In this document: piece after piece, positions 2,405 to 22,332 of the stretch
Layout of the letters: each line of letters begins with the position of its first letter
Position numbering within the stretch: the first letter of the stretch is position 1
NCBI GenBank assembly: GCA_964372275.1
Contig: CAYJRR010000030.1
Coordinates: 1 to 38,961 of the forward strand
DNA length: 38,961 nt
Origin: an uncultured bacterium
GTDB taxonomy: Bacteria > CAYJRR01
Direction: 5' to 3'
Position numbers and translations under genes: made by a program
Notes under the pieces: model-generated
The model's input: only the letters and a program-made list of their open reading frames with translations
What the model was told of the DNA's origin: nothing
The model's database searches: none

Positions 2405-2749
2405 GTGACCTTCCGTAACCGGACGCGCGGAATGGTGCTCTCCGATCGGACGCGGGTGGCCGACCGGCTCGTGAGCCGCATGGTCGGCCTGCTGGCCACC
2501 GACCGGCTCGAAGACGGCGAGGGCCTGTGGATCGAGCCGTGCACGTCGATCCACACCTGGTTCATGCGGTTCCCGATCGACGCCCTGTTCCTCGACGACG
2601 GGGGCCGCGTGGTGAAGCTGGTGCGCACGATGAAGCCCTGGAGACTGACCTCGATCGCCCGCCGGGCCCGTGGTGTCCTCGAGCTCCCCGCCGGGACGCT
2701 CGACCGGACCGGGACGTCGGTCGGAGACGAGGTCGAGCGGACGGCATGA
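2405..2749 (+). CDS. DUF192 (COG1430) family protein
   Basis: A 114-aa product carrying LWIEPCTSIHTWFMRFPIDALFLD...GTL, characteristic of DUF192. GGAGGA lies upstream of the GTG start. The 3' end overlaps the next gene in an ATGA junction. Confidence 0.65.
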   Translation: MTFRNRTRGMVLSDRTRVADRLVSRMVGLLATDRLEDGEGLWIEPCTSIHTWFMRFPIDALFLDDGGRVVKLVRTMKPWRLTSIARRARGVLELPAGTLDRTGTSVGDEVERTA

Positions 2750-4461: not shown

Positions 4462-5525
4462 CGGGGAAGGCACGGTCATCCCTTCGGGGCGCCGGGAAGG
4501 ATCGAATGGGCGGTATGCCGCGCGCCACCGATCCGCGCAAGGCCTCGGCCTCGGCGGGTCCGATGCGGCTCCGCATCCTCGACGGACCGGAAGCGGGGAC
4601 GGAGTACGCCGTCACCGGGGAGCGGGTGAGCCTCGGACGCGGGGACGGGAACGACATCGTGCTGGTCGACGAGAACGCGTCGCGCAACCACGCCGAGCTG
4701 GTGATGGAGCGCGACGGCCGGTACCGCGTGCGCGACCTCGGGAGCCGTCACGGCGTGGTGGTCAACAAGCGCCGGGTGCAGGAGGCGGCGCTCGCGTCCG
4801 GCGATCGCCTGCGCATCGGCAGCACGACGGTCGAGGTCCGGATCGACGGCGCACCTGCGGCGGGCAGTCCCCTGGTACGGTGGCTCGCGGTCGGCGGCGT
4901 GGTGGTGGTGGCCGCCGTCCTCTTCCTGGCGATGCGGGGCGGGAAGGGTCCGGTGGTGGTGGGAAATTCCGGGGCGCGTACGGTCGGCAGCGCCGCTCCG
5001 GCCCCGTCCGTCGCGGCGGCGGCGCCGGTCGTTCCGCGCGATCCCAACAGCATCTCCCTGGGGAGTCTCTTGAGTCCCGCCGCCTCCGCGCCGGCCAAAG
5101 GGGTGGAGGTCGGCCGCAACGCGAACACCCGTCCGGTCGGGGTCCCTCCTCCGACGGCGGCGACGATCAAGTCGAGCCCGGCGGACGTCGCGGCGGCGGC
5201 GGCGCTGATCGCCGAAGCCGACCGGAGCCTGGGAAGCGGACGCCTGTCGGACGCCCGCGAACAGATCGCCCGGGCGATCCGGATCGACCCCTCGTGCGAG
5301 CGTTGCGTCGCCAAGCTCGCCGGCGTCGAGGCGACGATCAAGAAGCAGATCGAGGACGCCTTCGCCGCCGGCAGGAAGTACCTCGACACGGCCCGCTACC
5401 AGGACGCCATCAACCAGTTCCAGAAGGTGAAACTGTTGGATCCCGATCCGGCCTCGATCAATAATGGGAACGCGAGCCGGCTGATCCAGGAGGCGCAGAC
5501 GCTGAAGGCGCAGAGCGGCCGATAG
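4458..5525 (+). CDS. FHA-domain membrane protein with a C-terminal TPR-like region
   Basis: FHA domain (LRILDGPEAGTEYAVTGERVSLGRGDGNDIVLVDENASRNHAELVMERDGRYRVRDLGSRHGVVVN). One TM helix (WLAVGGVVVVAAVLFLAM). A helical TPR-like tail follows. The GTG at 4458 overlaps the upstream stop (GTGA). An alternative ATG start is at 4506. Confidence 0.7.
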   Translation: MTGKARSSLRGAGKDRMGGMPRATDPRKASASAGPMRLRILDGPEAGTEYAVTGERVSLGRGDGNDIVLVDENASRNHAELVMERDGRYRVRDLGSRHGVVVNKRRVQEAALASGDRLRIGSTTVEVRIDGAPAAGSPLVRWLAVGGVVVVAAVLFLAMRGGKGPVVVGNSGARTVGSAAPAPSVAAAAPVVPRDPNSISLGSLLSPAASAPAKGVEVGRNANTRPVGVPPPTAATIKSSPADVAAAAALIAEADRSLGSGRLSDAREQIARAIRIDPSCERCVAKLAGVEATIKKQIEDAFAAGRKYLDTARYQDAINQFQKVKLLDPDPASINNGNASRLIQEAQTLKAQSGR

Positions 5526-5541
5526 GAAAGAGCCCTCCGGC

Positions 5542-7752
5542 ATGATCGAGTTGATCGTCAAGAAAGATGATCGCGAGATCAATCGCTACTTCCTTCCGCA
5601 GGGAATCACCACCCTCGGACGAGCGGAGGACAACGGAATCATCCTCGACGATTCCTGCGTCTCGCGCCGGCACGCCCAGATCAAGGTCGACGGCGCCAAG
5701 GTCCTGATCGAGGACATGAACTCCGGCAACGGCGTCTACCGGGGGGACGCCCGCATCGAGCAGCACGAGCTCGCCGACGGTGACGAGATCGTGATCGAGC
5801 CGTTCACGCTGCTCGTTCGCATGGACGCCGAGAAGGGGAGGGTCGCCGATTCGACGCGGCCCGTTCCGAGCGCCAATCGGCCGAGAAGCGAGCGCCTCGA
5901 TCCGCCGCCGCGCACCGCCCGGGAGCCGGGCGGGTCGGCCGCCGGCGGACCCCGCCTCGAGGTGCTTCGCGGGGCCGGGGGTCCGTACCTCCTGTCCGGC
6001 GACAGCATCGTTCTCGGTCGCTCGGACGAGGCGAAGATCACGCTCAAGGATCCGTCCTCCTCCCGCAAACACGCGATGATCGAGCGTTCGAACCGGGGCT
6101 GGACGGTCCGCGATCTGGGCAGCGCGAACGGGACCTACCTGAACGGTTCGGCGATCGGCGAGTCGCCGCTCGCCAACGGGGACGTCATCCTCATCGGGAA
6201 CACCGAGCTCCGCTTCATCGATCCGGAGGCGGTCGCCGACGACGATCCGGCGCCGCTTCCGTCCACCCGATCCGTCGCTGTCGACCGCGGGCGCGCCGCG
6301 GTCCTGAAGGACGAACCGGTCTGGGCGGACAGCGTCCGGGAGGCGGAGGCGGACGGTCTCACCGGGGCGGTCCACACCTCGGAGTTGTTCGAAGCGGGGG
6401 GCACCGCGGCCGGCGGCGATACGGAGCTGGGGGCGGCGGGGGCCGACGACGCGGGTGGGGTGGAGGACGAGGGCTATGCGGCGGACGGCGATCGCTCCAC
6501 CGCCGACTTCGGCTCGATCGACGCCACGGGGGCGGGCGACGCGTACGGGATGGAGCTGGAAGGGGTGGCGTTCCCCGGCGACGAGGTGCCGGAGTCGATC
6601 GTCGGGCGCTACATCTACTCGCTCAAGACCAATCGCCGTACCCAGTTGATCACCGGGTTGCTCGGATTCACCTTCGTGATGATCCTGATCGCGGGCAGCC
6701 GGGGGGGCGGTGGCGCGGGGGGAGCGGCCGTCGGGCCGCAAGTGCTCGACAAGCAGCAGAAGCTCACGCTGACCACCATGGAGGCCGCCCTGCGTCAGGC
6801 GCTGGGGGCGATCGATCCGTCCAAGCCGACGAAGGACTACGCGACGGCGTTCGAGTACTTCGGCCGGGTGCGGACGTTCGGCAGCACCGAGGAGATGAAA
6901 GAGGTCCGCGATGCGCAGGAGCTGGTGCGCACCGCGAACGAGAACATCTACACCCTGCACGAGGCGTTGCTCCTGGCCCGCCTGCGCGACGTCACGATGC
7001 GGGGCGCGGAACGGGATCGCGCCACGCAGGAGCGCTTCGATCGCTCGATGCGGGACGGGAAGGCCAACCTCGATGCGGCTCGCCGGCGGCGTTCGGTGGC
7101 CAGCTACGACGCGGCGCTACGCGCGTTCAACGACGTCCTCCAGATCGACCCCGAGAACGCCGAGATCAAGCAGCTGGTGGTCGCCGCCCGCTCCGAGCGC
7201 GGGAAGATCGCCGGTGAGATGTCGAAGGTCGCGAAGGCGGCGCTCGAGCGGAAGCAGAGGGCCACCTTCGACCAGGCGCAAGGCGCGATGGGCAAGCGAA
7301 CGGCGCGCGGCTACCTGGAAGCGATCCGTCTCTTCGAGCGGATGCTGCAGCAGGATCCGGGATACATGAGCGATCTGACCGGCCGGGCGTCGGCGGAGAT
7401 CGCCGCGGCGAAGAAGAAGCTGCGCGACTCGGCACGGCCGATCAAGGACAACGCGAAATCGGCGATCGCCCGGCAGGACTGGCTGACGGCGCGGGCCAAG
7501 CTGCGGCAGGCGCAGGCGACCGATCCGTACGACCTCTCCATTCCGGCGCAGTTGGAGGAGGTCCAGCAGGAGTGTCTCAAGAACGCGCGGCAACAGATCT
7601 CCGAGGCGAAGGCCTACAAGAACGTCGGGAACCCGGTCGAGGCGCGCAAATCGCTGGAGTTGGGCCTCCGCTACGCCGACGAAGAGAAGTACAAGGAGAA
7701 CCAGCAGATCCGCGAGCTCCTCAAGACGATCAGCCGCGAGAACGAGCGGTAG
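5542..7752 (+). CDS. Tandem-FHA membrane protein with a C-terminal TPR-like domain
   Basis: Two FHA domains (YFLPQGITTLGRAEDNGIILDDSCVSRRHAQIKVDG...IEDMNSGNGVY; YLLSGDSIVLGRSDEAKITLKDPSSSRKHAMIERSNRGWTVRDLGSANGTYLNG). An acidic low-complexity linker follows. One TM helix (LITGLLGFTFVMILIAG). A ~350-aa helical repeat region follows, paralogous to the tail of the previous gene. Confidence 0.8.
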   Translation: MIELIVKKDDREINRYFLPQGITTLGRAEDNGIILDDSCVSRRHAQIKVDGAKVLIEDMNSGNGVYRGDARIEQHELADGDEIVIEPFTLLVRMDAEKGRVADSTRPVPSANRPRSERLDPPPRTAREPGGSAAGGPRLEVLRGAGGPYLLSGDSIVLGRSDEAKITLKDPSSSRKHAMIERSNRGWTVRDLGSANGTYLNGSAIGESPLANGDVILIGNTELRFIDPEAVADDDPAPLPSTRSVAVDRGRAAVLKDEPVWADSVREAEADGLTGAVHTSELFEAGGTAAGGDTELGAAGADDAGGVEDEGYAADGDRSTADFGSIDATGAGDAYGMELEGVAFPGDEVPESIVGRYIYSLKTNRRTQLITGLLGFTFVMILIAGSRGGGGAGGAAVGPQVLDKQQKLTLTTMEAALRQALGAIDPSKPTKDYATAFEYFGRVRTFGSTEEMKEVRDAQELVRTANENIYTLHEALLLARLRDVTMRGAERDRATQERFDRSMRDGKANLDAARRRRSVASYDAALRAFNDVLQIDPENAEIKQLVVAARSERGKIAGEMSKVAKAALERKQRATFDQAQGAMGKRTARGYLEAIRLFERMLQQDPGYMSDLTGRASAEIAAAKKKLRDSARPIKDNAKSAIARQDWLTARAKLRQAQATDPYDLSIPAQLEEVQQECLKNARQQISEAKAYKNVGNPVEARKSLELGLRYADEEKYKENQQIRELLKTISRENER

Positions 7753-7773: not shown

Positions 7774-9684
7774 TCACTTTCCGGCGCAGGTCGAGAAGAG
7801 GACGCCGAACAGGAACAGCACCGATCCTCCGGCGGCCAGCAGGAGGATCATCCCCATTCCGGGCTTGTCGTCCTCCTCGTCGACCGGCGCCGACGCCCTC
7901 TTCGATCGCTCGGCCGGTCGGCCTCGGCTCTGAGCGGCGGCCGCACGGCTCGGATTCGCGGCGGCGCGACCTTGACCGGAGGCCGCGGCGAGCGGCCGTC
8001 CCTTGGTCCCGTGGAGCGCTCGTTCGCGGGCGGCGCGGGTCGTGGCCGGCTCCGCGAGGCTCTCCTCGGACGACGGCTCGGCCGGCTGCGCGCCGCGGCG
8101 GCCCGGCGCCGCGCCGGCGGGCGCCTCGTGAGGGGCCTCGGCGCGAAGCGGGGAGGAGGACCGGCTCGATCCCGTTCGGAAACTGCTCCGGTCGGTGGTG
8201 AAGGTCGATTCGGAGGGTGACACCGCGGTGTCGCCGGAGTCGGAGGAGGCGGCATGGGGCCGGGTGCGTGACGGTTCGGCCGTCGGCATCTCGACGGAGA
8301 CCTCGCGCCGGACCTCCGCCGTGTCGCTCTCCATCTCCGGACCGATCGGGCGGGTCCGCGCCGTCGACCGGCTTTGGCGTTCCACCTCGATCGTCCGCTC
8401 GGCGCTGATCGGCTCGCCCGTCGACGGCGTGATCAGGACGGGAGCCGTCTTTTTCTCCACCACCCGCCCGCTGCCCGGGATCAGGACGCGGTTGATCTCC
8501 TCCTCGATGTTCTCCAGGGCGCCCGTTCCGAGCGTTCGCGAGGCGGAGCGTTCCTCCAGCACCGATTCCTGCGGATCGGCTGCCTGCGCCACGGCCGGCG
8601 TGTGTTCGCCCAGCTTCGACGCGATCTCGACCGAGAAGCTCTTTCCGAAGACCCGCGAGATCGACTGCCCCTCGCCGTCGGAGATGTCGAGGCGCAGCTT
8701 CCCGGAAGTCTTGTCGGCGTCGGAGAGGACGTCGACCCGGATCTCCTCGGAGAAAACCGACTTCATGAACGCCGCGAGGTTGCTGGTGGTGAAGTTGAAG
8801 GTCGACGAATAGAAGAACCGGGTCAGCTCGTCTTTGAGCTCGGTCGCGGTCTGGTAGCGATCGCCGGGCTCCTTGGCCAGCGCCTTGAGGACGATGTTCT
8901 CCAGCTTCTTGGGGATGCTCTTGTTGTACTTCGACGGCGGTTCGACCTTCGCCTCGCGCACCCGCTCCAGGATCGACAGATCGCTCTCGCCACGGAACGG
9001 CTTCTTCTCGGTCAGCATCTCGTAGAGGACGATGCCGGTGGAGAAGATGTCGGTGCGGCGGTCGACAGCGAGTCCGGAGGCCTGCTCCGGGCTCATGTAT
9101 TCGTACTTCCCCTTCACCACGCCGGCTTCGGTCTCCCGGATGTTGACCGTCGCCTTGGCGATCCCGAAGTCGGTGATCTTGACCTCCCCCTCGTAGCTGA
9201 TCATCACGTTCTGCGGGGAGACGTCGCGGTGGACGATGTTCATCTCCCGCGGGCCGGTGGAGGTCATCTCGGTCTTGGCGTGCGCGTACTCCAGCCCCTT
9301 GCAGACCTCGATGGTGACGAAGACGGCGTGCTGGATGAACAGCGGCATCCCGATCTGATCGCATCGGGACATGAGGGCCCGGAGGTCCTTCCCCTCGATG
9401 TACTCCATCGCGATGAAGTAGCTGTCTTCGATCTTCCCGAGGTCGTAGATCTGCACGATGTTGGCGTGGCTCAACATCACGGCGATCTTCGCCTCGTTGA
9501 TGAGCATGTCGATGAAGTCCTTGTTCTCGCTCAGGTGCGGAAGGATCCGCTTGATGGCGAGGTACTTCTCGAAGCCGCCGACCCCCTTCGTCCGGGTCTT
9601 GAAGATCTCCGCCATCCCGCCGACGGCGATCTTTTCGAGAAGCTCGTACTTCCCGAAGGGGATGATCTTGGGTTCGCGTCCCAT
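7774..9684 (-). CDS. Hanks-type Ser/Thr protein kinase, tail-anchored
   Basis: Kinase subdomains are present: GxGxxA (IAVGGMAEIF), the VAIK-like AIKRI, HRDVSPQNVM and DFGIAK. A ~250-aa Ser/Arg/Ala/Pro-rich disordered region follows. A hydrophobic segment closes the protein at the extreme C-terminus (MGMILLLAAGGSVLFLFGVLFST). Confidence 0.9.
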   Translation of the reverse strand: MGREPKIIPFGKYELLEKIAVGGMAEIFKTRTKGVGGFEKYLAIKRILPHLSENKDFIDMLINEAKIAVMLSHANIVQIYDLGKIEDSYFIAMEYIEGKDLRALMSRCDQIGMPLFIQHAVFVTIEVCKGLEYAHAKTEMTSTGPREMNIVHRDVSPQNVMISYEGEVKITDFGIAKATVNIRETEAGVVKGKYEYMSPEQASGLAVDRRTDIFSTGIVLYEMLTEKKPFRGESDLSILERVREAKVEPPSKYNKSIPKKLENIVLKALAKEPGDRYQTATELKDELTRFFYSSTFNFTTSNLAAFMKSVFSEEIRVDVLSDADKTSGKLRLDISDGEGQSISRVFGKSFSVEIASKLGEHTPAVAQAADPQESVLEERSASRTLGTGALENIEEEINRVLIPGSGRVVEKKTAPVLITPSTGEPISAERTIEVERQSRSTARTRPIGPEMESDTAEVRREVSVEMPTAEPSRTRPHAASSDSGDTAVSPSESTFTTDRSSFRTGSSRSSSPLRAEAPHEAPAGAAPGRRGAQPAEPSSEESLAEPATTRAARERALHGTKGRPLAAASGQGRAAANPSRAAAAQSRGRPAERSKRASAPVDEEDDKPGMGMILLLAAGGSVLFLFGVLFSTCAGK

Positions 9685-9972: not shown

Positions 9973-10170
9973 GTGAGACGATTTCTTCGAGACGAATCGG
10001 GACAAACCGCGACGGAGTACATGCTGATCATCTCCGTGGTGGTGATCGCCATCGTGGCCGCCGCCTACGTCTACCTTCCGCAGTTCCAGCAGGGCGTCGC
10101 CTCGCTGGCGAACGACGTCAGCACGATCCTGGACGACGGCTGCATCAACCGGAACTGCACGCGAAACTAG
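9973..10170 (+). CDS. flp: Flp/Fap prepilin, paralog 1
   Basis: A 65-aa product. The leader ends in G, followed by the QTATEY Flp motif (G/XXXXEY). A hydrophobic helix follows (MLIISVVVIAIVAAAYVYL). The C-terminal tail carries two Cys residues (CINRNC). The start is in frame with the track ORF ending at 10170. Confidence 0.8.
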   Translation: MRRFLRDESGQTATEYMLIISVVVIAIVAAAYVYLPQFQQGVASLANDVSTILDDGCINRNCTRN

Positions 10171-10196: not shown

Positions 10197-10376
10197 ATGG
10201 GCCGACGGAAGAACGCGCGAGGCCAGGCGGCGGTCGAGTACCTGCTCGCGATCTCGGTCATCGTGGTCGCGGTGGCGGCCGCCTTCTACAGCATCCTGCA
10301 GGACCGGAACGGCAACCAGCGACTGGGCAAGGCGTTCGAGAACGCGCGCAACGTCGTCGAAGCGCCCTACCCGTAA
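10197..10376 (+). CDS. flp: Flp prepilin, paralog 2
   Basis: A 59-aa product: MGRRKNARG/QAAVEYLLAISVIVVAVAAAFYSIL. It starts 26 nt after flp1, so it is probably co-transcribed. Confidence 0.8.
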   Translation: MGRRKNARGQAAVEYLLAISVIVVAVAAAFYSILQDRNGNQRLGKAFENARNVVEAPYP

Positions 10377-10395: not shown

Positions 10396-10884
10396 TTGAC
10401 CGGCATGGTCGCGCTCTCCGCCCTCGCCCTCGCGGTTTCGGTCCTCGCGACCGTGACCGACCTCCTCGAACGGAAGATCTTCAACTGGCTGACTCTGCCG
10501 GCGCTGGGGCTCGGCGTCGCGCTGCACGCCACCCCCGGCGCGGCGCCGTGGTGGACGGGGCTCGCCGGATCGCTCGCGGTCGGTCTCCCCTTCTTCGTCC
10601 TCTACGCAACCGGGGTGATGAAGCCGGGGGATGTGAAGCTCTTGATGGCGCTCGGGGCGATCCTCGGTCCACGGCAAGGGATCGAGATCGGCGTGGCGTC
10701 GATCATGCTGCACGGACCGATCAGTCTCGCGCTCCTGGTCGGGCACCGCCGACTCGGAAATCTGCTCGCGATGTGGCGCGCGGGATGGAGCTCCGACCGG
10801 GCGCTGCTGGCCCCCTACGGATTCTCGATCGCGCTGGCGGTCTTCGGATCGGTCGCCTATCACCTGGCCGGCCGGTCCGGCTGA
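10396..10884 (+). CDS. tadV: Prepilin peptidase (A24 family), CpaA/TadV-like
   Basis: A 162-aa polytopic membrane protein carrying DLLERKIFNWLTLPAL and a second acidic-residue region, typical of CpaA/TadV. It sits directly after the two flp genes. A TTG start is at 10396; an ATG alternative is at 10405. Confidence 0.75.
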   Translation: MTGMVALSALALAVSVLATVTDLLERKIFNWLTLPALGLGVALHATPGAAPWWTGLAGSLAVGLPFFVLYATGVMKPGDVKLLMALGAILGPRQGIEIGVASIMLHGPISLALLVGHRRLGNLLAMWRAGWSSDRALLAPYGFSIALAVFGSVAYHLAGRSG

Positions 10885-12623
10885 GGCGACACCGCGCCGA
10901 GCAGCAACGGGTGGACCTCCTCCGGCAGGAGCGTGCCGAGCTCCTTTCCGGGCGGAAAGGCCGGCCCCCGAGCGAAGAGCACACCATCGCCCGAATGCCA
11001 GTTGCCGAACAGCGCGTTCTCCTGGCGCGCCATCCCGTGGTCGCCGATCACCAGCGTGGTGGTCCGCTCGTCGCCGGGCTCGAGGAGCCATGCGATCTTG
11101 CGATCGAACCGGTTCAGGTACGCCGCCATGAACGGCGCGAGACGTTTCGAGTCGTCCGGCGAGAACCCGGGCACCTGCCCCCGTTCGTCGGGAAGGAGGA
11201 CGTGCGCCGTCAGGTCGACCCCTTCGAAGTAGACCGCCAGGACGGACGGCTGCCGATCGTCGCGAAGGTGGCGCGCCGCCTCCCCGCACGACTGGGTGTT
11301 CAACCAGCCGTAATAGGCGTTCGAGAAGGCGTGGGTGCGCGCCGATTCCACCGTTCCGACCGCCTGCCGCTCGACGAACGCGGCGATCTCCTCGTCGCGG
11401 AGCGGTACCAGGTTCACCAGCTCCGGATCGGGCGGCTCCCCGGCGGCGCGCCGGAACGGCGCGATCCGGGACTCCGTTTCGGCGGGCCAGACGAGGTGCT
11501 CCTCCTCCGCGCGGTAGTGGAAGAGGAGCTCGGTCTTCGACGGAGCCCATCGATCGGAGACGTTGACCCCCGACACCGGCTCCACCGGCCAGGTCGCGGG
11601 CCAGCAGACGAGGCCGATCCGGCCCAGCGCCGGCAGCTTCCAGAACGGCGTCCCGCGGCGGTGCAACCGCGTGGCGGGAAGGATCGAGATCCAGCCGGCG
11701 CGCCAGGCCCCGAGCAGGGGGACGGCGAGCAGCCCCGAGACCGGGTCGGTGTAGAGTCGGTCGACGGGGATCGTTCCGAACGCCGGATCGTTGACGAAGA
11801 ACTCGAAGTTCGAGATCCGGTGCTTCGACGGCGGTAGCCCGGTGGCGATCGAGGTCCAGATCCCGGACGACAGTTGCGGAGGCGCGCTTCGCACCGAACC
11901 GACCGCCGCCGATGCCGCGAATCGCGAGAGGGCCGGCATCTCGTCCGCGTAGGTCCGAACGAGATCGAGCCCCAGACCGTCGATCGCGACGACGACCAGC
12001 CGCGGAAACGGAGCCGCCTCGGCAACGCCGGCGGCGTCGATGCCGTCGTCCCCTCGAGCCGGCCCTTGTCCCGTGAAGAGGGCCGCCACGACGAGGAGCG
12101 CCGCGGTGCCGCCGGCGAAGGGCCCCGCCTTCGCCGGGCTCGCGGAGAGGCGATCGACCCATCGGCTCGCCAGCCGCGCGCAGAGGACGGCGGCGGCGAT
12201 GCCGACGAGCGGCGCGACGAGCAGACGGACGTTCGACACGCCGCTCAACAGCCCGACCTGACGTCCGGTCCACCGGACCAGCGCGAAGACCGCTCCTCCG
12301 GCGGCAAGCAGCGGAGGGAGCACGAGGAAGAGCCCTTCGACGAACGATGCCAACTCGGTGCGCGCGGGGATCCGTTTCCGGCGGCGGTGAAGGTGGAGGA
12401 GCGCGGCCGGGATCGAGGCGACGGCGCCGGCGACGACCGCCGCGAGGATCGTCGCGGCCGGGGGGATCGCGTCGATTCGAAGGGCCGCGATCACCGTGTA
12501 GCCGGCGCCCACCAGACCCGAGCCGGCGACCGCCCACCGAGCGCTTCCCGCCATCTTTGGCTCGCACTCTACCACCGGCAGCCCGCGTCGCGCCGGGGGC
12601 AGAGAATCCCCCAAACGCGACAA
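10860..12623 (-). CDS. Membrane-anchored alkaline-phosphatase-superfamily enzyme (type I phosphodiesterase / nucleotide pyrophosphatase-like)
   Basis: About four to five N-terminal TM helices. The catalytic domain has the metal-site motif VVVAIDGLGLDLV near its start and LVIGDHGM near its end. It is convergent with tadV, with overlapping 3' ends. The likely start is M at 12555 (MAGSARWAV...). Confidence 0.7.
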   Translation of the reverse strand: MSRLGDSLPPARRGLPVVECEPKMAGSARWAVAGSGLVGAGYTVIAALRIDAIPPAATILAAVVAGAVASIPAALLHLHRRRKRIPARTELASFVEGLFLVLPPLLAAGGAVFALVRWTGRQVGLLSGVSNVRLLVAPLVGIAAAVLCARLASRWVDRLSASPAKAGPFAGGTAALLVVAALFTGQGPARGDDGIDAAGVAEAAPFPRLVVVAIDGLGLDLVRTYADEMPALSRFAASAAVGSVRSAPPQLSSGIWTSIATGLPPSKHRISNFEFFVNDPAFGTIPVDRLYTDPVSGLLAVPLLGAWRAGWISILPATRLHRRGTPFWKLPALGRIGLVCWPATWPVEPVSGVNVSDRWAPSKTELLFHYRAEEEHLVWPAETESRIAPFRRAAGEPPDPELVNLVPLRDEEIAAFVERQAVGTVESARTHAFSNAYYGWLNTQSCGEAARHLRDDRQPSVLAVYFEGVDLTAHVLLPDERGQVPGFSPDDSKRLAPFMAAYLNRFDRKIAWLLEPGDERTTTLVIGDHGMARQENALFGNWHSGDGVLFARGPAFPPGKELGTLLPEEVHPLLLGAVSPQPDRPAR

Positions 12624-12715
12624 TTCCTCCTCAGGGCGGTCGAAGGGGTCCGGGCCCGTCCTTCAACCATTTGCCGTAGAAGGGAAATTTTCGGCGAGGC
12701 GCAGGCGGCGTCGGG

Positions 12716-12731
12716 TGGCACGTCGGCTGCA
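12716..12731 (+). promoter_or_regulatory. Sigma-54 promoter candidate for flp3
   Basis: TGGCACG-tcgg-CTGCA has the same spacing and the same single mismatch as the flp1 site. Confidence 0.5.
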
Positions 12732-12806
12732 CAAACCGTCCTCGAAGGCCGTTGGGGGCAGCCAACGATTTACGAACAGACGACGAACGAGACGAGGAGA
12801 ACGACG

Positions 12807-13013
12807 ATGATCAAGAACTTCCTTCGCAACGAAGAGGGCCAGACGGCGACCGAGTACATGCTCATCATTTCGGTCGTGGTCATCGCGATCGTTGCCGCCG
12901 CCTATGCGTTCCTTCCGCAGTTCCAGGCCGGCGTGCAGGCGCTCGCCAGCGACGTGAAGACGATCCTGTCGGGCGGCAACATCGGCGGGTCCGGCGTCCA
13001 GCGCAACAACTGA
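12807..13013 (+). CDS. flp: Flp prepilin, paralog 3
   Basis: A 68-aa product: MIKNFLRNEEG/QTATEYMLIISVVVIAIVAAAYAFL, with a Gly-rich tail (SGGNIGGSGVQRNN). The ATG is in frame with the track ORF ending at 13013. Confidence 0.8.
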   Translation: MIKNFLRNEEGQTATEYMLIISVVVIAIVAAAYAFLPQFQAGVQALASDVKTILSGGNIGGSGVQRNN

Positions 13014-13094: not shown

Positions 13095-13307
13095 GTGCGG
13101 CGTCGTCTCGAACACAGAGCGAGATCGCGGACCGGTCAGACGGTGACGGAGTACCTCCTCGTCATCACCGTATTCGTGATCGCGATCGCCGCCGTGGTCT
13201 ACGACCCGATCGCCGCCGCCTTCCTCGACGGGACCGACGGTTTCTACAAGACCGCGGTGCAGGGCGCGGAGACCGGCGGCTACGACGTGACGAACGGACA
13301 GCGGTAG
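13095..13307 (+). CDS. flp: Flp prepilin, paralog 4
   Basis: A 70-aa product: VRRRLEHRARSRTG/QTVTEYLLVITVFVIAIAAVVY. GTG start. Confidence 0.75.
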   Translation: MRRRLEHRARSRTGQTVTEYLLVITVFVIAIAAVVYDPIAAAFLDGTDGFYKTAVQGAETGGYDVTNGQR

Positions 13308-13313
13308 CCCGAT

Positions 13314-13535
13314 CTACTGTCCGCGAGGGGCCGGTCCGCCGTAGCTGTCGTCGGCGAACCATCGCTCGAAGTCGGCCATGAAGGCGTCGATCCCCTGCTG
13401 GAGCGGCGGATAGAACTCGTAGCCGGCCGCCACCACCGCCAGCACGATCACGCTGATCGCCAGCATGTATTCGGTCGACGCCTGACCGCGATTCCGGCCG
13501 AATCGCCGCCCGAGCCGCCGAAAAGGGATTCGCAT
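13314..13535 (-). CDS. flp: Flp prepilin, paralog 5 (minus strand)
   Basis: The C-terminal 73 aa of track ORF 13314..13931 read MRIPFRRLGRRFGRNRG/QASTEYMLAISVIVLAVVAAGYEFY. The upstream part of that ORF is Arg-rich junk. It is convergent with flp4, with only 6 nt between the stop codons. Confidence 0.7.
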   Translation of the reverse strand: MRIPFRRLGRRFGRNRGQASTEYMLAISVIVLAVVAAGYEFYPPLQQGIDAFMADFERWFADDSYGGPAPRGQ

Positions 13536-13815: not shown

Positions 13816-14910
13816 GTGGTCGGACGACGGCGAAACGGGGAACGCGGGCAGGCGGCGGTGCTGCTGGCGATTCTCTGCTTCGTCCTGGTGCTGATGATCG
13901 CCTTCACCACCAACCTCGGAAAGCTGGTCACCGAGAAGATGGCGATGCAGAACGCCGTCGACCTCGCCGTCTATTCCGGGGCCGCGACCCAGGCCGGCTA
14001 CCTCAACAAGATGCGGGAGATCAATCACGACATCTGGAAGGTGCACAACGAGGTTCGCGAGAAGTTTGCGATGAGCGGCGAGGCCGGGATCGGAAATCCA
14101 TTTTTCCAGCAGCCGGGAATCGTCCAGGCCTGCGGCCCGATCTACACCACCGGACCGCTGACCGCGCCGCAGGCGGAGCAGTTCAAGACCCAGAAGAAGA
14201 TGGAGATCCAGAATCTCCGGTTCGACTTTCAACAGGCCAATCAAGCCGCTCCCGGTGCCTCCTTGAACGCCGCGCGTCAGGCGGCGAATCTCAACTTTGC
14301 CGGAACGGGACAATCGGGCCGATTCAACCTGAAGTCCCCGATGTCGTCGGCGCTCTTCCCGGCGGGAAGTGATCAGATCCATTGGGACTACTCCGGCTGG
14401 TCCTACTCTGTCTGCGGGATCATCCCCAACGGTCCGGTCTACGCCGAGTTCGTCACCCAGGACCAGGCCGACAGCTGGTTCTACTGGGACTCCGATCCGG
14501 GCGAGATCCTGTTCGCCGCCGGCATCGAGAACGCGGCGCCGTTGAGCCCCTTCGTCGACGTGGGGAGCATCGGCGGCTGGTACTTCTCGAAGTGCTCCAC
14601 CGGCGGGATGAACACCGCGGGTCGGTGTCCGATGCCGGTCTACGCCGCGGCGCACCCGTTCTTCGGCAAGATGGGGACGATGAAGAGCGGACCCGACGCG
14701 TCGGAATGGACCGGCCCCTCCGACGACTTCATCAACAATCCGGATCCGAAGGCGATCGACAAGAACGACCTCGACGACTACAAGGTGAGGGGCGGGACCT
14801 ACCAGGACTACCAGGCGCGGTTCATCGGGATCTTCGAACAGAACGCCAACGTGCTCGGCGGGTCGCAGCTGCTCTCGCAGGTGCCGAGCGGAAACCAGAT
14901 GGATCACTGA
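13816..14910 (+). CDS. TadG-like / TadE-G pseudopilin with a large C-terminal domain
   Basis: The N-terminus (RRNGERGQAAVLLAILCFVLVLMIAFTTNLG) fits the Tad pilus-assembly TadE/G-like N-terminal domain. A ~300-aa extracellular domain follows. Confidence 0.65.
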   Translation: MVGRRRNGERGQAAVLLAILCFVLVLMIAFTTNLGKLVTEKMAMQNAVDLAVYSGAATQAGYLNKMREINHDIWKVHNEVREKFAMSGEAGIGNPFFQQPGIVQACGPIYTTGPLTAPQAEQFKTQKKMEIQNLRFDFQQANQAAPGASLNAARQAANLNFAGTGQSGRFNLKSPMSSALFPAGSDQIHWDYSGWSYSVCGIIPNGPVYAEFVTQDQADSWFYWDSDPGEILFAAGIENAAPLSPFVDVGSIGGWYFSKCSTGGMNTAGRCPMPVYAAAHPFFGKMGTMKSGPDASEWTGPSDDFINNPDPKAIDKNDLDDYKVRGGTYQDYQARFIGIFEQNANVLGGSQLLSQVPSGNQMDH

Positions 14911-15263
14911 TGATCGAACGTCGACCGCGTCGGACGAACGAGAAGGGCCAGTCGGCCGTCGAGGTCCTCTTCGGGATCCCGGTGCTGCTTACGATCTTCG
15001 TGCTCGGCTTCCAGCTCTTCGAGATCACCTGGAACGCGCAGTACGCGCACGTGCGAAGCCGCCAGGAGATGATGAACTTCGCGGCGCATCGGCCGTGCTT
15101 CGCCAACAACGACGGCGGAACGAACTCGCTCGGGAACGGCACCATCTCCCCGTCCCAGGCGCGGATCGACGCCACCCTCAACCCCGGAGCGCCGGGCTCC
15201 CCGGGACTGGTCCGCAGGCGCCAGATCCGGCACCGGGCCTCGGTCTACTGCAACCAACCGTGA
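14910..15263 (+). CDS. TadE-like minor pilin
   Basis: MIERRPRRTNEKGQSAVEVLFGIPVLLTIFVLGFQLFEI matches the TadE N-terminal domain. The start overlaps the upstream stop (TGATG). Confidence 0.65.
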   Translation: MIERRPRRTNEKGQSAVEVLFGIPVLLTIFVLGFQLFEITWNAQYAHVRSRQEMMNFAAHRPCFANNDGGTNSLGNGTISPSQARIDATLNPGAPGSPGLVRRRQIRHRASVYCNQP

Positions 15264-15265
15264 CG

Positions 15266-15826
15266 ATGAACGCGCCGAAACGATCGATCCTGCGAAGCCA
15301 GCGCGGCCAGTCGACGGTCGAGCTGGCGCTCATGATGCCGATCGTCTTCACCGTCTTCTTCTGGATGTTCGAGTCGAACATCCTGATGTCCGGGATGCAC
15401 ATGACGGCGTACGGCGCCTACGTCGGCGCCCGCGCGCATCTCGTCGAGAACCAGGACAACGGCGTCCGCGAGCGCTCCGCGGTCCGGCGGGTTCTCACCG
15501 GCGGGATCTTCCGACAGAACTACTTCATGGGCGGTCGCTCGCCGCTGTTCCAGGTCTACGCGACGAACCGAGGCTCGATGATCGGACCGGGCACCGCGCC
15601 GTCGCACACCGCCTCCAGCGATGGGGTGGTGGTGACGGTTCCGATGTTCGCCTCTCTGCCCTACGTCCGGCACCTGTTCAACCTCGACGCGAGCGGAAAT
15701 CCCCGCGCGCCGCTCGGGATCCCCACCCACCTCGGCCCCGACGAGTGGACCGGGAACAGCGATCAGCGGTGGGGACTCGGAACGGGCTGCCAGCTCACCG
15801 ACAACAATCTGACCGACGACTGCTGA
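15266..15826 (+). CDS. TadE/TadF-like minor pilin
   Basis: MNAPKRSILRSQRGQSTVELALMMPIVFTVFFWMFE matches the TadE-like N-terminal domain. It is in frame with track ORF 15095..15826. Confidence 0.65.
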   Translation: MNAPKRSILRSQRGQSTVELALMMPIVFTVFFWMFESNILMSGMHMTAYGAYVGARAHLVENQDNGVRERSAVRRVLTGGIFRQNYFMGGRSPLFQVYATNRGSMIGPGTAPSHTASSDGVVVTVPMFASLPYVRHLFNLDASGNPRAPLGIPTHLGPDEWTGNSDQRWGLGTGCQLTDNNLTDDC

Positions 15827-15878
15827 CTCCGGTCGTCGGAGCGGCGGCGATCCCCCCGATCGCGGGAAAGTCCCTCGT

Positions 15879-15908
15879 TTGACACGGTTTTTACGCCGGC
15901 GGTAAACT
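15879..15908 (+). promoter_or_regulatory. Sigma-70-like promoter candidate upstream of cpaB (TTGACA-N18-TAAACT)
   Basis: A perfect -35 hexamer TTGACA, an 18-nt spacer and a weak -10 TAAACT, ~50 nt upstream of the cpaB GTG. Confidence 0.3.
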
Positions 15909-15957
15909 GGCGCCACGCTTCGCTTACGTCGGCGCGGGCGTTCGAGGGTCCTCTCGC

Positions 15958-16785
15958 GTGAAGAACCGTCGTGCCCTGATCTATTCGGTGCTCTGCGCGT
16001 TCTTCGCGATGCTGTTCCAGTGCTCCTACATCAGCAAGAAAGAACGCCTTCTCCAGGGCGACTACGAACCGATCAAGGTGATGGTCGCCAAGAAGAACAT
16101 CCCCAAAGACTTCAAGCTCGACGAGACGATGGTCGAGTTCGTCGACATCCCCAAGAAGTACGTCCAGCCGAAAGCGCTCAAGGACCTCAACGAGATCCTG
16201 GGGCAGATCTCCGGCTCCACCATCTTCCAGGGGGAGCAGATCATCGCCACCAAGCTGCTCTCGATCGAGGACGCGGGGCTGGCGTTCAAGGTGCCGAAGA
16301 ACTTCCGCGCCTTCACCATCGCCGTCGACGATGTTTCGGGCGTCGGCGGGCACGTCCGGCCGGGGAACTACATCGACCTGATGGGGATCTTCGACTTCGG
16401 CGATGAGCGGAAGTCCGACCAGCGCGCGGTGACGCTCCTCCAGAACGTCTACGTCCTCGCCGCCGGCGGCGACCTCGGACAGGCGGTCCCGTTCAACGCC
16501 TCGAGCGATGACGTGGAACGGATCAACGAGATCGTGCGTCAGAAGGACGAGAAGAACTACCGTGGCTACCGGAACGTGACGCTCATGCTGACCGCCGAGG
16601 AGGCCCAGAAGGTGATGTTGGCCCAGGAGGTCGGTTCCTTGAGCCTCACGCTGCGCTCCCTGTGGGAGGGGAACACGCAGCTCCCTCTCGACAAGGTGTC
16701 GGTCAACAGCGCGGTCGGCATCCCCGAGAAGGTCTACCGCCGGCCGCGGGCATCGTATCGGGAGATTCGCGCAGGGAGCTACTAG
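15958..16785 (+). CDS. cpaB: Flp pilus assembly protein CpaB/RcpC
   Basis: A 275-aa product. N-terminal TM anchor, then SAF-like and RcpC-like regions (KVPKNFRAFTIAVDDVSGVGGHVRPGNYIDLMG... VTLLQNVYVLAAGGD). Confidence 0.85.
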   Translation: MKNRRALIYSVLCAFFAMLFQCSYISKKERLLQGDYEPIKVMVAKKNIPKDFKLDETMVEFVDIPKKYVQPKALKDLNEILGQISGSTIFQGEQIIATKLLSIEDAGLAFKVPKNFRAFTIAVDDVSGVGGHVRPGNYIDLMGIFDFGDERKSDQRAVTLLQNVYVLAAGGDLGQAVPFNASSDDVERINEIVRQKDEKNYRGYRNVTLMLTAEEAQKVMLAQEVGSLSLTLRSLWEGNTQLPLDKVSVNSAVGIPEKVYRRPRASYREIRAGSY

Positions 16786-16804
16786 CAGCTACGCAGGGGG
16801 GTTC

Positions 16805-18256
16805 TTGGAGCGGGCGCGTCGGGCGGTTCGGGAGATCCTCGCGGCGGCCGCGACCGCGGCGCTGGTGATCGTGGTCGCGCCCGCGGCCGCCCGAGCGGCC
16901 GAAGAGGTGGTGATCGTCGTCGGGAAGCAGGTGACGGTGAACATCCCGTTCCCGATCGGCAGCGGTGCCAACTCCAACCCCGAAGTGGTGCAGGCGGTGG
17001 TCGATCCCCAGAGCCGACGGATCATCTTCTTCGGCCGTCGGGTCGGTTCCGCCAGCTACGTGGTGTTCGACGCTCGCAGCCGCACCAACCGCAAGGAGTA
17101 CGACATCCGCGTCGTCGGAGAGGACCTGGCGCGGATCCGCGACAACCTGCAGCGGCAGATCGGCGACATCGAAGGGGTCGAGGTCAAGCTGCAAGGGGAC
17201 CAGGTGATCGTCGAGGGGGACGTGGCCCTGGAGTCGGAGCTGCAGCGGATCGAGAAGCTGACGCTCAATCGTCCGAACATCCAGAACCTGGTGCGCCTCT
17301 CGCCGTTGGCGATCAAGGCGACCGCCCGCACCATCCAGCAGGCGATCGACCGCCCGGAGGTCACCGCCCGGCCGCTGAAGGACAAGATCCTCCTGGAAGG
17401 GGACGTCTACTCCGACGAGCAGAAGACGCGGGCGGAGATGATCGCCACCACGCTCTTCTCCAACATCGTCAACGTCATCGAGGTGAAGCAGGTGCCGCGG
17501 CCGCCGAGCCGCGCCAAGACGATCGTGCTCAACACCCACTTCCTGGAGCTGTCCAAGGAGATGCTCGACACCTGGAGCATCAACTGGGGGACGGTGGCGC
17601 TCTCCGAGAGCGGGCTGCAGGCCTTCTTCCAGATGGACCTGGTCAACGGCGAGTTCGTCGGCGACTTCAACACCACCATCTCGGGAACGATCTCGGCCTT
17701 CCTCCCCAAGCTCGACCGCGCCAAGCCGGAAGGGGTGGTGCGGACGCTGGCCAATCCGGTGATCACCACCAAGGACGGCGAGGCGGCGTCGATCTTCACC
17801 GGGGCCACCGTCCCGTTCATCGTCGGCGTCGCGGCGAACGGAACGCCGATCGTCGATTTCAAGGACGTCGGGATCTCCCTCAACGCCACCCCCTTCGCGC
17901 AAGGGGACAGCGTCGACCTGAAGATGACCGTCGAGGCCAGCGACGTCGGGAACGTCGACCTGGCGAGCGACCAGACCGGCATCCTGAAGTCGACCTTCTC
18001 CTGCTCCCAGTTCGTCCGCGCCGGGGAAAGCGTGGCGATCGGCGGACTGTTCCGCGTCGGCGATAACGTCGTCTACAACAAGCCGGTCAACGCGCGGCAG
18101 TTCGAGGACTCGATCTTCCGGCTGTTCCTCTCGCGCTCCTACCAGAAGCGCAAGGGGCAGTTCATCGTCTTCATCACGCCGACCGTCCACGACGAGAGCA
18201 GCAGCGCCAACCGCGAGATGAAGGACGTCTTCAACCTGCAGGAAGTCGGCCAGTAG
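16805..18256 (+). CDS. cpaC: Tad secretin CpaC/RcpA
   Basis: Signal peptide, then N-terminal secretin-associated domains, then a C-terminal secretin domain (VRTLANPVITTKDGEAASIFTGATVPF...GILKSTFSCSQFVRAGESVAIGGLFR). Confidence 0.85.
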   Translation: MERARRAVREILAAAATAALVIVVAPAAARAAEEVVIVVGKQVTVNIPFPIGSGANSNPEVVQAVVDPQSRRIIFFGRRVGSASYVVFDARSRTNRKEYDIRVVGEDLARIRDNLQRQIGDIEGVEVKLQGDQVIVEGDVALESELQRIEKLTLNRPNIQNLVRLSPLAIKATARTIQQAIDRPEVTARPLKDKILLEGDVYSDEQKTRAEMIATTLFSNIVNVIEVKQVPRPPSRAKTIVLNTHFLELSKEMLDTWSINWGTVALSESGLQAFFQMDLVNGEFVGDFNTTISGTISAFLPKLDRAKPEGVVRTLANPVITTKDGEAASIFTGATVPFIVGVAANGTPIVDFKDVGISLNATPFAQGDSVDLKMTVEASDVGNVDLASDQTGILKSTFSCSQFVRAGESVAIGGLFRVGDNVVYNKPVNARQFEDSIFRLFLSRSYQKRKGQFIVFITPTVHDESSSANREMKDVFNLQEVGQ

Positions 18257-18258
18257 CG

Positions 18259-20445
18259 ATGCCGGTCAATCCGAACTGCTTCGTCATCTCGGTCATCGGC
18301 GCGCGGGACGGGGTCGGCAAGACTGTTTTCTCCTGCAACTCGGCGCTCTCCTTCCAGCGCGAGACGCGTCGCCGCGTCTGCCTGATCGACCTCGACCCGG
18401 TCTACTGCGGCGACCTGAACAACCTGATCGGCGCGCCGATCACCAAGTCGTTCGCCGACCTCGCGCCGGTGGTCGAACGCGCGCAGGCCTCGCTGCTCAA
18501 GGGGTTCATCACCCCGCACGCCTCGGGGATCACCCTCTTCCCGCTCTACAAGGAGGCCAAGGAGCTGGCGGCAATCCCGCCGGCGGCGGTGGGGCGGACG
18601 CTCGAACTGTTGACCGAGATCAACGACTTCCTGATCGTCGACGTCGGGACGGTGGTCAACGACGTCACGCTGAAGGCGCTGGAACGATCGACTGCGGTCT
18701 TCATCGTCACCACCCCCGACGTGATGGTCCTGGAGCAATCGCGGAAGCTGGTCGAACAGCTCCAGAACCTGCACTTCCCCCGCGAGATGCTGAAGGTGAT
18801 CCTGAACAAGTTCGAAGGGGAGAAGGGGCCGATCTCGCTCGAGGTGATTGCCCAGAAGCTGCAGCGCCAGCTGCTCACCGCCATCATGCGCGACGACGCG
18901 ACGGTCAGCCAATCGGTGAACATGTCGCAGCCGTTCGTGCTCGCCGCGCCGCGGGCGCCGATCACCAAGAAATACGACGACCTGGCCCGCAACCTCCTCG
19001 AGCGCGGGATCCTGGCCAACCTGCGGTCGGCGGCGAAGCCGGCGGGGGTCGCGCTCGAGCCGTCGACGGGAGGCGCCGCGCTCGTCAAGGGGCCGGCGGT
19101 CTTCAAGGCGACCGCCTCGCCGACGGCGGGCAAGTTCGGAGCCAAGAAACAGATCCAGCTCGATCCTCGCACGCAGCTCAAGCAGCGGATCCACAAGCGG
19201 CTGATCGAGGTGCTCGACCTGAAGCGCCTCGACACCGAGCTCAAGGGGAAGGAGAACAAGGAGGAGCTGCTTCGGGAGCGGACGGAGCAGGCGATCATCG
19301 CCATTCTCGACCAGGACGCGCCCGACGTCCGCGATCGCGAGGAGCGCAAGGCGATCGTCCGCGAGGTGCTCAACGAGGCGCTCGGCCTGGGGTGCCTGGA
19401 GGACCTCCTCGCCGATCCGACGGTGAGCGAGATCATGGTGAACCACCCCCACCAGATCTACATCGAGAAGTCGGGGAAGCTGACCCTTTCCGAGACGACC
19501 TTCACCGACGAGGGGCAGCTCCGCGCCGTGATCGAGCGGATCGTGGCGCCGATCGGGCGGCGCATCGACGAGAAGAGCCCCTACGTCGACGCCCGGCTGC
19601 GCGACGGCAGTCGCGTCCACGCCATCATCCCGCCGCTGGCGCTGAACGGGTCGTGCCTCACCATCCGGAAGTTCTCCAAGGACCCCTTCACCTACAAGGA
19701 CCTGGTGAAGTTCGGCTCCTTCACCGACGAGATCGCCGACTTCCTTCGCGCCTGCGTCGAGGCGCGCCTCAACATCATCATCTCGGGCGGCACCGGCTCG
19801 GGGAAGACGACGCTCCTGAACGTCATGTCCGGATTCATCCCGGCCGACGAGCGGATCATCACCGTGGAGGACTCCGCCGAGCTGCAGCTCCCGCAGGACC
19901 ACGTCGTTCGCCTCGAGACCCGGCCGAAGAACATCGAAGGGGAAGGGGAGGTCACGATCCGCGACCTGGTGCGCAACACGCTCCGGATGCGGCCCGACCG
20001 CATCGTGGTGGGGGAGTGCCGCGCCGGCGAGGCGCTCGACATGTTGCAGGCGATGAACACCGGCCATGACGGCTCACTGACCACCGTCCACTCCAACTCG
20101 CCACGGGACTGCATCGCCCGGCTGGAGACGCTGGTGATGTTCGCGGGTCTCGACCTGCCGAGCCGCGCCATCAAGGAGCAGATCGCCGGCGCCATCAACA
20201 TGATCGTGCAGCAGACGCGGCTGTCCGACGGCTCGCGCAAGATCACCTACATCACCGAGGTCACGGGGATGGAAGGACAGGTGATCACCATGCAGGACAT
20301 CTTCACCTTCAAGCAGACGGGGGTCGACGACCGGGGGAAGGTGGTCGGGAAGTTCATCTCCACCGGTTTCATCCCGAGGTTCGTGGAAGGGCTGCAGGCG
20401 CGCGGGATCAAGCTCCCCAAGGGGATCTTCCGTGGCGGGGACTGA
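18259..20445 (+). CDS. cpaF: Fusion protein: an N-terminal ParA/MinD-like CpaE/TadZ ATPase-fold domain joined to the CpaF/TadA secretion ATPase
   Basis: Residues ~1-270 carry a deviant Walker A (IGARDGVGKT), a Walker A' (VCLIDLDPVYCGD) and a Walker B (FLIVDVGT), as in CpaE/MinD. There is no receiver domain. A Pro/Ala linker follows. A complete CpaF/T2SSE ATPase follows (GGTGSGKTTLLN Walker A, the DRIVVGECRGAEA-like region, His box TGHDGSLTTVHSN). The whole protein is one uninterrupted 728-aa frame. Confidence 0.85.
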   Translation: MPVNPNCFVISVIGARDGVGKTVFSCNSALSFQRETRRRVCLIDLDPVYCGDLNNLIGAPITKSFADLAPVVERAQASLLKGFITPHASGITLFPLYKEAKELAAIPPAAVGRTLELLTEINDFLIVDVGTVVNDVTLKALERSTAVFIVTTPDVMVLEQSRKLVEQLQNLHFPREMLKVILNKFEGEKGPISLEVIAQKLQRQLLTAIMRDDATVSQSVNMSQPFVLAAPRAPITKKYDDLARNLLERGILANLRSAAKPAGVALEPSTGGAALVKGPAVFKATASPTAGKFGAKKQIQLDPRTQLKQRIHKRLIEVLDLKRLDTELKGKENKEELLRERTEQAIIAILDQDAPDVRDREERKAIVREVLNEALGLGCLEDLLADPTVSEIMVNHPHQIYIEKSGKLTLSETTFTDEGQLRAVIERIVAPIGRRIDEKSPYVDARLRDGSRVHAIIPPLALNGSCLTIRKFSKDPFTYKDLVKFGSFTDEIADFLRACVEARLNIIISGGTGSGKTTLLNVMSGFIPADERIITVEDSAELQLPQDHVVRLETRPKNIEGEGEVTIRDLVRNTLRMRPDRIVVGECRAGEALDMLQAMNTGHDGSLTTVHSNSPRDCIARLETLVMFAGLDLPSRAIKEQIAGAINMIVQQTRLSDGSRKITYITEVTGMEGQVITMQDIFTFKQTGVDDRGKVVGKFISTGFIPRFVEGLQARGIKLPKGIFRGGD

Positions 20446-20487
20446 CGCGAGCACGGCGCGGGCCGGGGGCCGGACGGAGGAGGTCCG

Positions 20488-21390: not shown

Positions 21391-21449
21391 AGCGGTCGCG
21401 GCCCGCCGGCGCTGGCCGGGTTCCCGGCGAAACTGCTAGATTCGGGCCG

Positions 21450-22331: not shown

Positions 22332-22332
22332 C

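Follow-up and report, generated by a model that had tools for sequence, protein, structure and literature searches.

The AlkP gene and its catalytic domain

We analysed a gene for an alkaline-phosphatase (AlkP)-superfamily protein that lies among the flp pilin genes of a Tad-like cluster in contig CAYJRR010000030.1 of an uncultured bacterium (assembly GCA_964372275.1); the whole stretch of 38,961 nucleotides is referred to below as the window. Our best reading is that the gene encodes an accessory, periplasm-facing enzyme that cleaves phosphodiesters or transfers phospho-groups and is coupled to the pilus. The gene and the two predicted domains of its product are as follows:

10860..12554, minus strand: AlkP-superfamily enzyme gene, 564 residues (open reading frame (ORF), GC content at third codon positions (GC3), Pfam), or 587 residues if translation began further upstream, at the in-frame TTG at 12623
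10860..12002, minus strand: catalytic domain, residues ~185-564 (alignments), with the metal ligands, S229, C317/C423 and an insertion at ~245-410
12072..12554, minus strand: predicted N-terminal membrane domain, residues ~1-161 (hydropathy, charge counts, AlphaFold2 (AF2) helices)

The ORF is a genuine gene. In the ORF list it extends over 10860..12623 on the minus strand when read from the TTG, and an ATG at 12554 gives the 564-residue product. We take 10860-12554 as the likely gene because the 564-residue form is 100% identical to the public database protein P0001 and because the N-termini of homologues line up with this ATG in the alignment; residue numbers below refer to this form. GC3 is 0.88 in a window of ~69% GC (~0.69), and the ORF is therefore a real coding sequence. 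The original prediction, made from the sequence alone, had recognised the ORF but gave its product 580 residues; the two motifs that it quoted, VVVAIDGLGLDLV and LVIGDHGM, are both present.

The predicted catalytic domain of the type I phosphodiesterase/nucleotide-pyrophosphatase (NPP) kind is borne out by Pfam: the protein matches Phosphodiest (PF01663) with an E value of 1.3e-19 and 71.4 bits (cut-off 23), over residues 209-536 of the 587-residue form. Of the 342 profile positions only 1-228 are matched, because a family-specific insertion of ~150 residues (~245-410), with invariant motifs of its own such as CWPATWP, covers the region between core strands. No match to Sulfatase (PF00884) or EptA_B_N (PF08019) was found in Pfam at E<=1, nor any match to PigN; in NCBIfam there is a faint similarity to phosphonoacetate hydrolase only, and no model of the PptA/EptA type matches. 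A profile of the AlkP family compared with solved structures finds Xanthomonas NPP and phosphonoacetate hydrolase, with S229 aligned to Thr90, the nucleophile of the Xanthomonas (Xac) NPP.

Conservation of the active site was followed first across six aligned sequences and later across ten family members. The metal ligands (D192, D447, H451, D505, H506 and H520) and the nucleophile S229 are invariant in 10/10, and the active site is therefore not degenerate, a possibility that the original prediction had raised against itself. Judged by these alignments, the full two-metal site and the nucleophile are kept; the site is intact and the enzyme apparently active. The asparagine that follows the nucleophile of NPP (T-F-P-N) is missing in the aligned AlkP family, which has L-S-x-x-I-W. 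C317 and C423 are likewise invariant in all ten members, and in most of them are the sole cysteines of the catalytic domain.

Five transmembrane (TM) helices are predicted by hydropathy at residues ~9-25, 36-52, 77-93, 109-125 and 146-162, in line with the N-terminal helices described originally. Charge counts show strongly basic loops 2 and 4 and an acidic linker behind TM5. Of the nine family members with an N-terminus, seven share this five-helix and charge pattern and two have only four segments. The invariant pair C317/C423 suggests a disulfide, hence an oxidising compartment. Taken together, hydropathy, the basic loops, the acidic linker and the conserved cysteine pair suggest an N-in/C-out protein with a periplasmic catalytic domain, as the pilin-modification idea expects. 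The AF2 model, built on a six-sequence alignment, places helices with low confidence at residues 2-24, 32-60, 67-101, 109-136 and 140-161. With this model the top 50 Foldseek hits are all NPP, ENPP or autotaxin structures, at template-modelling scores (TM-scores) of 0.2-0.45, which are low because the model is poor (predicted local distance difference test score, pLDDT, 58.8). Searching again with the family alignment brought in no further homologues that could have deepened the alignment behind the structure.

The Tad-like cluster and its variable slot

The AlkP gene lies in a Tad-like cluster at ~1.4 to 21.4 kb of the window, which contains five flp genes, FHA proteins and a Ser/Thr kinase:

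1474-2394, plus strand: T2SSF protein (tadC-like)
2527-7752, plus strand: three FHA-domain proteins
7774-9684, minus strand: Ser/Thr kinase
9973-10170, plus strand: flp1, Flp-type pilin whose C-terminus carries Cys-x-x-x-x-Cys (Flp_Fap, E 7.3e-5, below cut-off)
10197-10376, plus strand: flp2, Flp-type pilin ending in PYP (GQAAVEYLL and a hydrophobic stretch; no Pfam match)
10396-10884, plus strand: tadV/cpaA prepilin peptidase (Peptidase_A24, E 6.4e-15)
12555..12806, no strand: divergent intergenic region of 252 bp between the AlkP gene and flp3 (from coordinates)
12807-13013, plus strand: flp3, Flp-type pilin divergent from the AlkP gene (Flp_Fap, E 7.5e-4)
13095-13307, plus strand: flp4, Flp-like pilin (GQTVTEYLL signature)
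13314-13535, minus strand: flp5, Flp-like pilin (Class_IIIsignal, E 6.7e-4)
13816-21390, plus strand: tadG, tadE-like genes, cpaB, cpaC, a cpaE-cpaF fusion and tadB

The Flp pilins fall below the Pfam gathering cut-off, and their signature, G-Q-T-A-T-E-Y-M with a hydrophobic stretch, is clear. The AlkP gene was described as an opposite-strand insertion between flp1-flp2-tadV and flp3-flp4-flp5; its order and strand hold, but flp5 is itself on the minus strand. The AlkP gene and tadV are convergent and their 3' ends overlap by 25 bp; in the 252-bp region shared with flp3 no sigma-70-like promoter was found.

Linkage of the AlkP gene to flp genes extends beyond the window. Three divergent family members (43-59% identity), in the window and in two related loci, L003 and L009, adjoin flp genes in two gene orders. 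The L003 homologue (43% identity) stands in the order flp2, tadV, an opposite-strand FA_hydroxylase-AlkP pair, flp3/4/5, tadG, tadE; as in the window it converges on tadV, with a 14-bp overlap, and its reading frame and that of the FA_hydroxylase-family gene overlap by 4 nt and are translationally coupled. The L009 homologue (45% identity) has an flp1 orthologue on one side and, on the other, the start of a kinase gene, 146 bp downstream on the same strand. The distribution of the family is patchy: a profile search among 1.84 billion representatives places ~7 proteins below E 1e-80 in the close family, and beyond them scores fall to 1e-44, in a large and diverse AlkP-family set.

Orthologues of the window pilins were followed through related loci: flp1 in L009, L072, L101, L102 and L104; flp2 in L003, L072, L101, L102 and L104; flp4 in the latter five and L106; and flp3, at 62-78% identity, in many metagenome loci. 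All related clusters keep the five types of Flp paralogue, with flp5 on the opposite strand. Flp1 orthologues (window, L009, L072, L101, L102 and L104) end in a conserved G-C-I-x-x-(x)-C, a motif that may form a small disulfide loop, and Flp2 orthologues end in (P/A)-(Y/F)-P.

Five-flp clusters, fetched via TadG homologues, differ in what they carry between tadV and flp3:

Window: AlkP only; no other accessory gene
L003: FA_hydroxylase and AlkP; 500-residue and 725-residue multi-TM proteins nearby
L101: empty, with a 411-bp gap, and otherwise the gene order of the window; no other accessory gene seen
L102: FA_hydroxylase and a 499-residue multi-TM protein; contig ends
L104: FA_hydroxylase; a 721-residue multi-TM protein
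L106: FA_hydroxylase, where the contig starts; a 733-residue multi-TM protein
L072: FA_hydroxylase; a 550-residue multi-TM protein between flp4 and flp5, and a 725-residue protein

The slot thus varies among the seven related clusters and repeatedly hosts integral-membrane enzymes. Single-flp clusters (L063, L068, L073 and L091) have the order flp-tadV-tadE-tadG and no accessory gene.

The commonest occupant of the slot is the FA_hydroxylase-family (PF04116) protein, found by tadV or just upstream of flp3 in 5/7 five-flp clusters (L072:8722-9675, L003:8712-9695, L102:1652-2629, L104:1184-2173 and L106:34-993) and absent from the window. It is 55-62% identical between loci, and its best NCBIfam similarity, far below cut-off, is to the ornithine-lipid hydroxylase OlsE. 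The two recurrent multi-TM proteins are also absent from the window: one of ~500 residues (L102:2654-4153, L003:1794-3305), which has no Pfam match and bears DWDDLGWH in an early loop, and one of ~725 residues (L003:3313-5502, L104:5420-7585, L106:4306-6507, L072:~14530-16690), of which the L003 copy has a weak C-terminal match of the spermidine-synthase or methyltransferase kind and the L104 and L106 copies have no Pfam match.

The cluster closest to that of the window is L072 (~70% amino acid identity in CpaB/CpaC). Its 550-residue protein, multi-TM at the N-terminus, matches Phosphodiest marginally (24.2 bits, cut-off 23) and reaches 22.5 bits for Sulfatase (cut-off 25); hhalign aligns its D223/T263 to D192/S229 at only 5% probability. 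A link of this protein to the AlkP superfamily is suggestive only.

Other genes of the window show features of their own. The T2SSF platform genes are split, one at 1474-2394 (far left, upstream of the FHA genes) and one at 20488-21390 (right end, after the ATPase), ~18 kb apart. The T2SSE ATPase (18259-20445) carries a fused N-terminal CpaE/TadZ-like ParA/MinD domain in one 728-residue protein. The kinase (7774-9684) has a long low-complexity linker rich in Pro, Ala, Ser and Arg and a single C-terminal hydrophobic anchor, without an extracytoplasmic sensor domain. Right after tadB, at 21393-23322, are a PP-loop (TilS-like) ORF and a protein that combines Amidase_2 (N-acetylmuramoyl-L-alanine amidase) with a YkuD L,D-transpeptidase domain. 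A bacterial microcompartment (BMC)-like locus occupies 25183-32248 on the minus strand, with a class II aldolase (25183-26103), BMC shell proteins (26784-27491 and 31625-32248) and an aldehyde dehydrogenase (29524-30969). Two predicted surface or secreted proteins are encoded at 23442-25016 (PKD domain) and 37113-38885 (seven FG-GAP repeats and a cadherin-like domain).

Candidate function and its alternatives

We propose that the five N-terminal TM helices (N-in, C-out) would hold a two-metal NPP/Phosphodiest-type domain at the periplasmic face of the inner membrane; that Ser229 would attack a membrane-proximal phosphodiester or phosphomonoester to give a covalent phospho-enzyme; and that the phospho-group would then pass to water or to an acceptor hydroxyl. 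In the leading candidate reaction, a phospho-form from a membrane phospholipid head group would be added to one or more Flp pilins, a decoration like that by PptA but through a different branch of the AlkP superfamily. As with the topology, we infer the transferase rather than hydrolase activity, the lipid donor and the pilin acceptor. A substrate made by the cluster is favoured because the AlkP gene stands among pilin genes, because its linkage to them has survived rearrangement and because other membrane enzymes occupy the slot; Flp pilins are obvious candidates since they cross the inner membrane and expose their C-termini to the periplasm. Phospho-form modification of Flp pilins by the AlkP enzyme is our leading hypothesis, which we hold tentatively and at somewhat less than even odds.

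Several observations weigh against it, and against the dedicated pilin modifier of the original prediction. Four orthologous multi-flp clusters that span the slot (L101, L102, L104 and L072) are without an AlkP gene, and L101 otherwise shares the gene order of the window. Of 42 metagenome loci fetched via the conserved pilin motif, ~8 of them long enough to judge, none contains a relative of the AlkP protein (tblastn, 1e-5; family hidden Markov model, E<=1). The gene is thus kept in L003 and L009 only, and absence from orthologous flp clusters, which the original prediction had named as its own refutation, is borne out in part. Because the gene is missing from orthologous five-flp clusters, the pilus does not need it, and it is an optional accessory of one lineage of Tad-like clusters (the lineage with five flp genes, FHA proteins and the kinase) rather than a core Tad/Flp component. 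Moreover, no residue of Flp1-5 tracks the presence of the AlkP gene when orthologues from clusters with and without it are compared. The TM region is poorly conserved across the AlkP family, in which it differs from lipid-binding TM domains such as that of EptA; the AF2 model is poor, as given above; and to our knowledge the characterised bacterial members of PF01663 are hydrolases, with no phospho-form transferase among them. Finally, the window protein and the L003/L009 pair are grouped at only 38% bootstrap, and their sister clade (L001/2, L004-8 and L010-13; 99-100% bootstrap) has no Tad genes: every sister-clade locus that extends far enough shows the order RNase HII-GT2-AlkP-(~535-residue, 9-10-TM protein). 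In favour of the original prediction are the AlkP-superfamily membership, the intact active site, the predicted periplasmic topology and the flp linkage in L003 and L009; the absence from orthologous clusters and the non-Tad sister clade speak against it.

The sister clade leads to the strongest rival, which we consider somewhat unlikely: an envelope enzyme that acts not on pilins but on a glycoconjugate or lipid of the periplasm or outer leaflet, adding phospho-groups to it or removing them, so that the copy in the Tad cluster remodels the envelope round the pilus or merely travels along. Such a substrate is consistent with the position of the sister-clade gene between a small GT2 and the conserved multi-TM protein, with the coupling of the L003 gene to a neighbour that resembles OlsE (far below cut-off), and with glycosyltransferases as the most frequent families among 119 neighbours of distant homologues (GT1/GT4 5, GT2 4, PMT_2 3). 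This last enrichment is weak, at ~10% of neighbours; in the window neither a GT2 nor an FA_hydroxylase or multi-TM partner is present; and the AlkP gene stands inside the group of pilin genes, not at the edge of the cluster, an association that survives rearrangement in L009. The distant homologues, thirty-odd proteins of 22-31% identity, showed no Tad context.

The sister-clade GT2 has its best NCBIfam similarities, all far below cut-off, to polyprenyl-phosphate sugar synthases (PgfS, ArnC and PpgS). The conserved sister-clade arrangement spans L005:8664-13274 and recurs in L001, L008, L010, L012 and L013. Its multi-TM protein carries the invariant loop GSDVAEWFWTLHSLSNP(G/S)WEHF and matches nothing in Pfam, NCBIfam or PDB sequences; that it is GT-C-like is a guess. 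Opposite this arrangement lies a 1240-residue ORF rich in Pro, Ala and Arg.

A plain membrane-tethered periplasmic hydrolase of the NPP type, scavenging phosphate or nucleotides, for instance from lysed prey if the pilus is predatory and Kil-like, is improbable in our estimate. The closest matches in sequence and fold are hydrolases (Xac NPP, ENPP1/3, autotaxin and phosphonoacetate hydrolase), and the AlkP protein keeps a full two-metal site as do NPP and AP (alkaline phosphatase itself), whereas transferases of the EptA/LtaS type have a one-metal site. However, a five-helix anchor would be unusual for a simple scavenger, the asparagine after the NPP nucleophile is missing, the 150-residue family-specific insertion lies between core strands, and linkage to flp genes or to a GT2 operon would not be expected.

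We give still less weight to the idea of a passenger gene, functionally unconnected with the pilus and inserted in a recombination-prone slot. The variability of the slot among the seven clusters, the absence of the gene from most of them and the rarity and patchiness of the family would all fit a passenger; strict conservation of the active site would not, and neither would the persistence of three homologues as divergent as 43-45% beside flp genes in different arrangements.

A phosphoprotein phosphatase that opposes the adjacent Ser/Thr kinase in an FHA signalling module would explain why no PP2C-type phosphatase is seen among the annotated cluster genes and why the L009 gene lies 146 bp upstream of a kinase gene on the same strand, but we regard it as highly implausible and reject it on the predicted topology, which puts the catalytic domain, with its cysteine pair suggestive of an oxidising compartment, in the periplasm and the FHA domains and the kinase, anchored only C-terminally, in the cytoplasm.

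Comparison with known systems and implications

The analogy with Neisseria PptA, on which the original prediction was built, holds at the level of superfamily and architecture and fails at the level of family. PptA and EptA/LptA/EptC (PF00884 and PF08019) also combine an N-terminal bundle of ~five TM helices with an AlkP-superfamily domain and a hydroxyl-residue nucleophile, and their catalytic domain faces the periplasm, as is predicted for that of the AlkP protein. The AlkP protein differs from them in several respects: it belongs to PF01663 and matches neither of their Pfam families; it keeps all six ligands of the two-metal site; its nucleophile is Ser rather than Thr; and its N-terminus, alike in five-TM architecture to those of PptA, EptA, EptC and LtaS, has no detectable sequence similarity to them. 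By these profile and sequence comparisons it is not a PptA/EptA-family member. In addition, pptA is not embedded in a pilin locus, and the target of PptA is a type IVa pilin: PptA places phospho-forms on PilE (PMC4010543), and PptA and EptC modify pilus or flagellar proteins.

Among members of PF01663, the best sequence and fold matches are Xanthomonas axonopodis NPP (PDB 2gsn/7mw8) and ENPP1-3/autotaxin, with which the ligands and the nucleophile position align. Those enzymes are hydrolases, either soluble or anchored by a single pass, in which the nucleophile is Thr and an Asn follows it, whereas the AlkP protein has five predicted TM helices, a Ser nucleophile, no Asn and the 150-residue insertion with CWPATWP. 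The eukaryotic glycosylphosphatidylinositol (GPI) ethanolamine-phosphate transferases PIG-N, PIG-O and PIG-G carry a PF01663-type luminal domain, and show that such a domain on a multi-TM region can be a phospho-form transferase that uses phosphatidylethanolamine. The sister-clade operon (GT2, multi-TM protein and AlkP) loosely recalls the enzyme set of the GPI pathway. The TM region of PIG-N/O/G is C-terminal (the PigN domain) and much larger, whereas that of the AlkP protein is N-terminal and lacks a PigN match.

Optional, strain-variable membrane enzymes that face the periplasm and modify pilin are encoded next to pilA in Pseudomonas aeruginosa (tfpO/pilO and tfpW). These type IVa accessory genes encode glycosyltransferases or oligosaccharyltransferases that act on type IVa pilins, whereas the AlkP gene encodes another type of enzyme in a Tad/Flp locus, and the parallel is positional only. 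In gene content the cluster in the window resembles the predatory Kil pilus of Myxococcus xanthus (PMC8460266, PMC12075869), which is also Tad-like and has several FHA proteins, several Flp-type pilins and a prepilin peptidase; it differs in having a Ser/Thr kinase and an ATPase fused to a CpaE/ParA-like domain rather than to FHA (KilF is an FHA-ATPase fusion). In the main text of these two papers the word phosphatase has no match, and phosphodiesterase has none in that of 2021.

Flp pilins are among the smallest pilins, with ~45-55 residues when mature, and little is known of their chemical modification; we know of no enzyme shown to modify a Tad pilin. The original statement that nothing similar had been described for Tad systems was nevertheless too strong. 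Phosphorylcholine has been reported on Flp1 of A. actinomycetemcomitans, with no enzyme assigned and with pptA homologues elsewhere in that genome (PMC6182317), so a phospho-form on an Flp pilin has a precedent. No modification density is seen in the Caulobacter Tad pilus (PMC10710030).

If the AlkP enzyme does modify Flp pilins, the two would form a directly testable enzyme-substrate pair and would show that another branch of the AlkP superfamily had been recruited convergently to decorate pilins. If it acts on lipids or glycans instead, it would be an ordinary uncharacterised AlkP-family enzyme. A more far-reaching version, to which we assign a low probability, would make the slot enzymes (AlkP-type, fatty-acid-hydroxylase-type and GT-C-like) interchangeable and the AlkP protein the first dedicated phospho-form transferase in a Tad/Flp locus, independent of PptA, together diversifying the surface of FHA/kinase-controlled and possibly predatory pili. 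It is part of the same version, and as speculative, that five-TM PF01663 enzymes of the AlkP kind would be a previously unrecognised and very small subfamily. Perhaps the more useful lead is the variable slot itself, among the flp genes of five-flp clusters, with its differing integral-membrane enzymes: by analogy with the accessory loci of type IVa pili, it suggests surface diversification of Tad pili.

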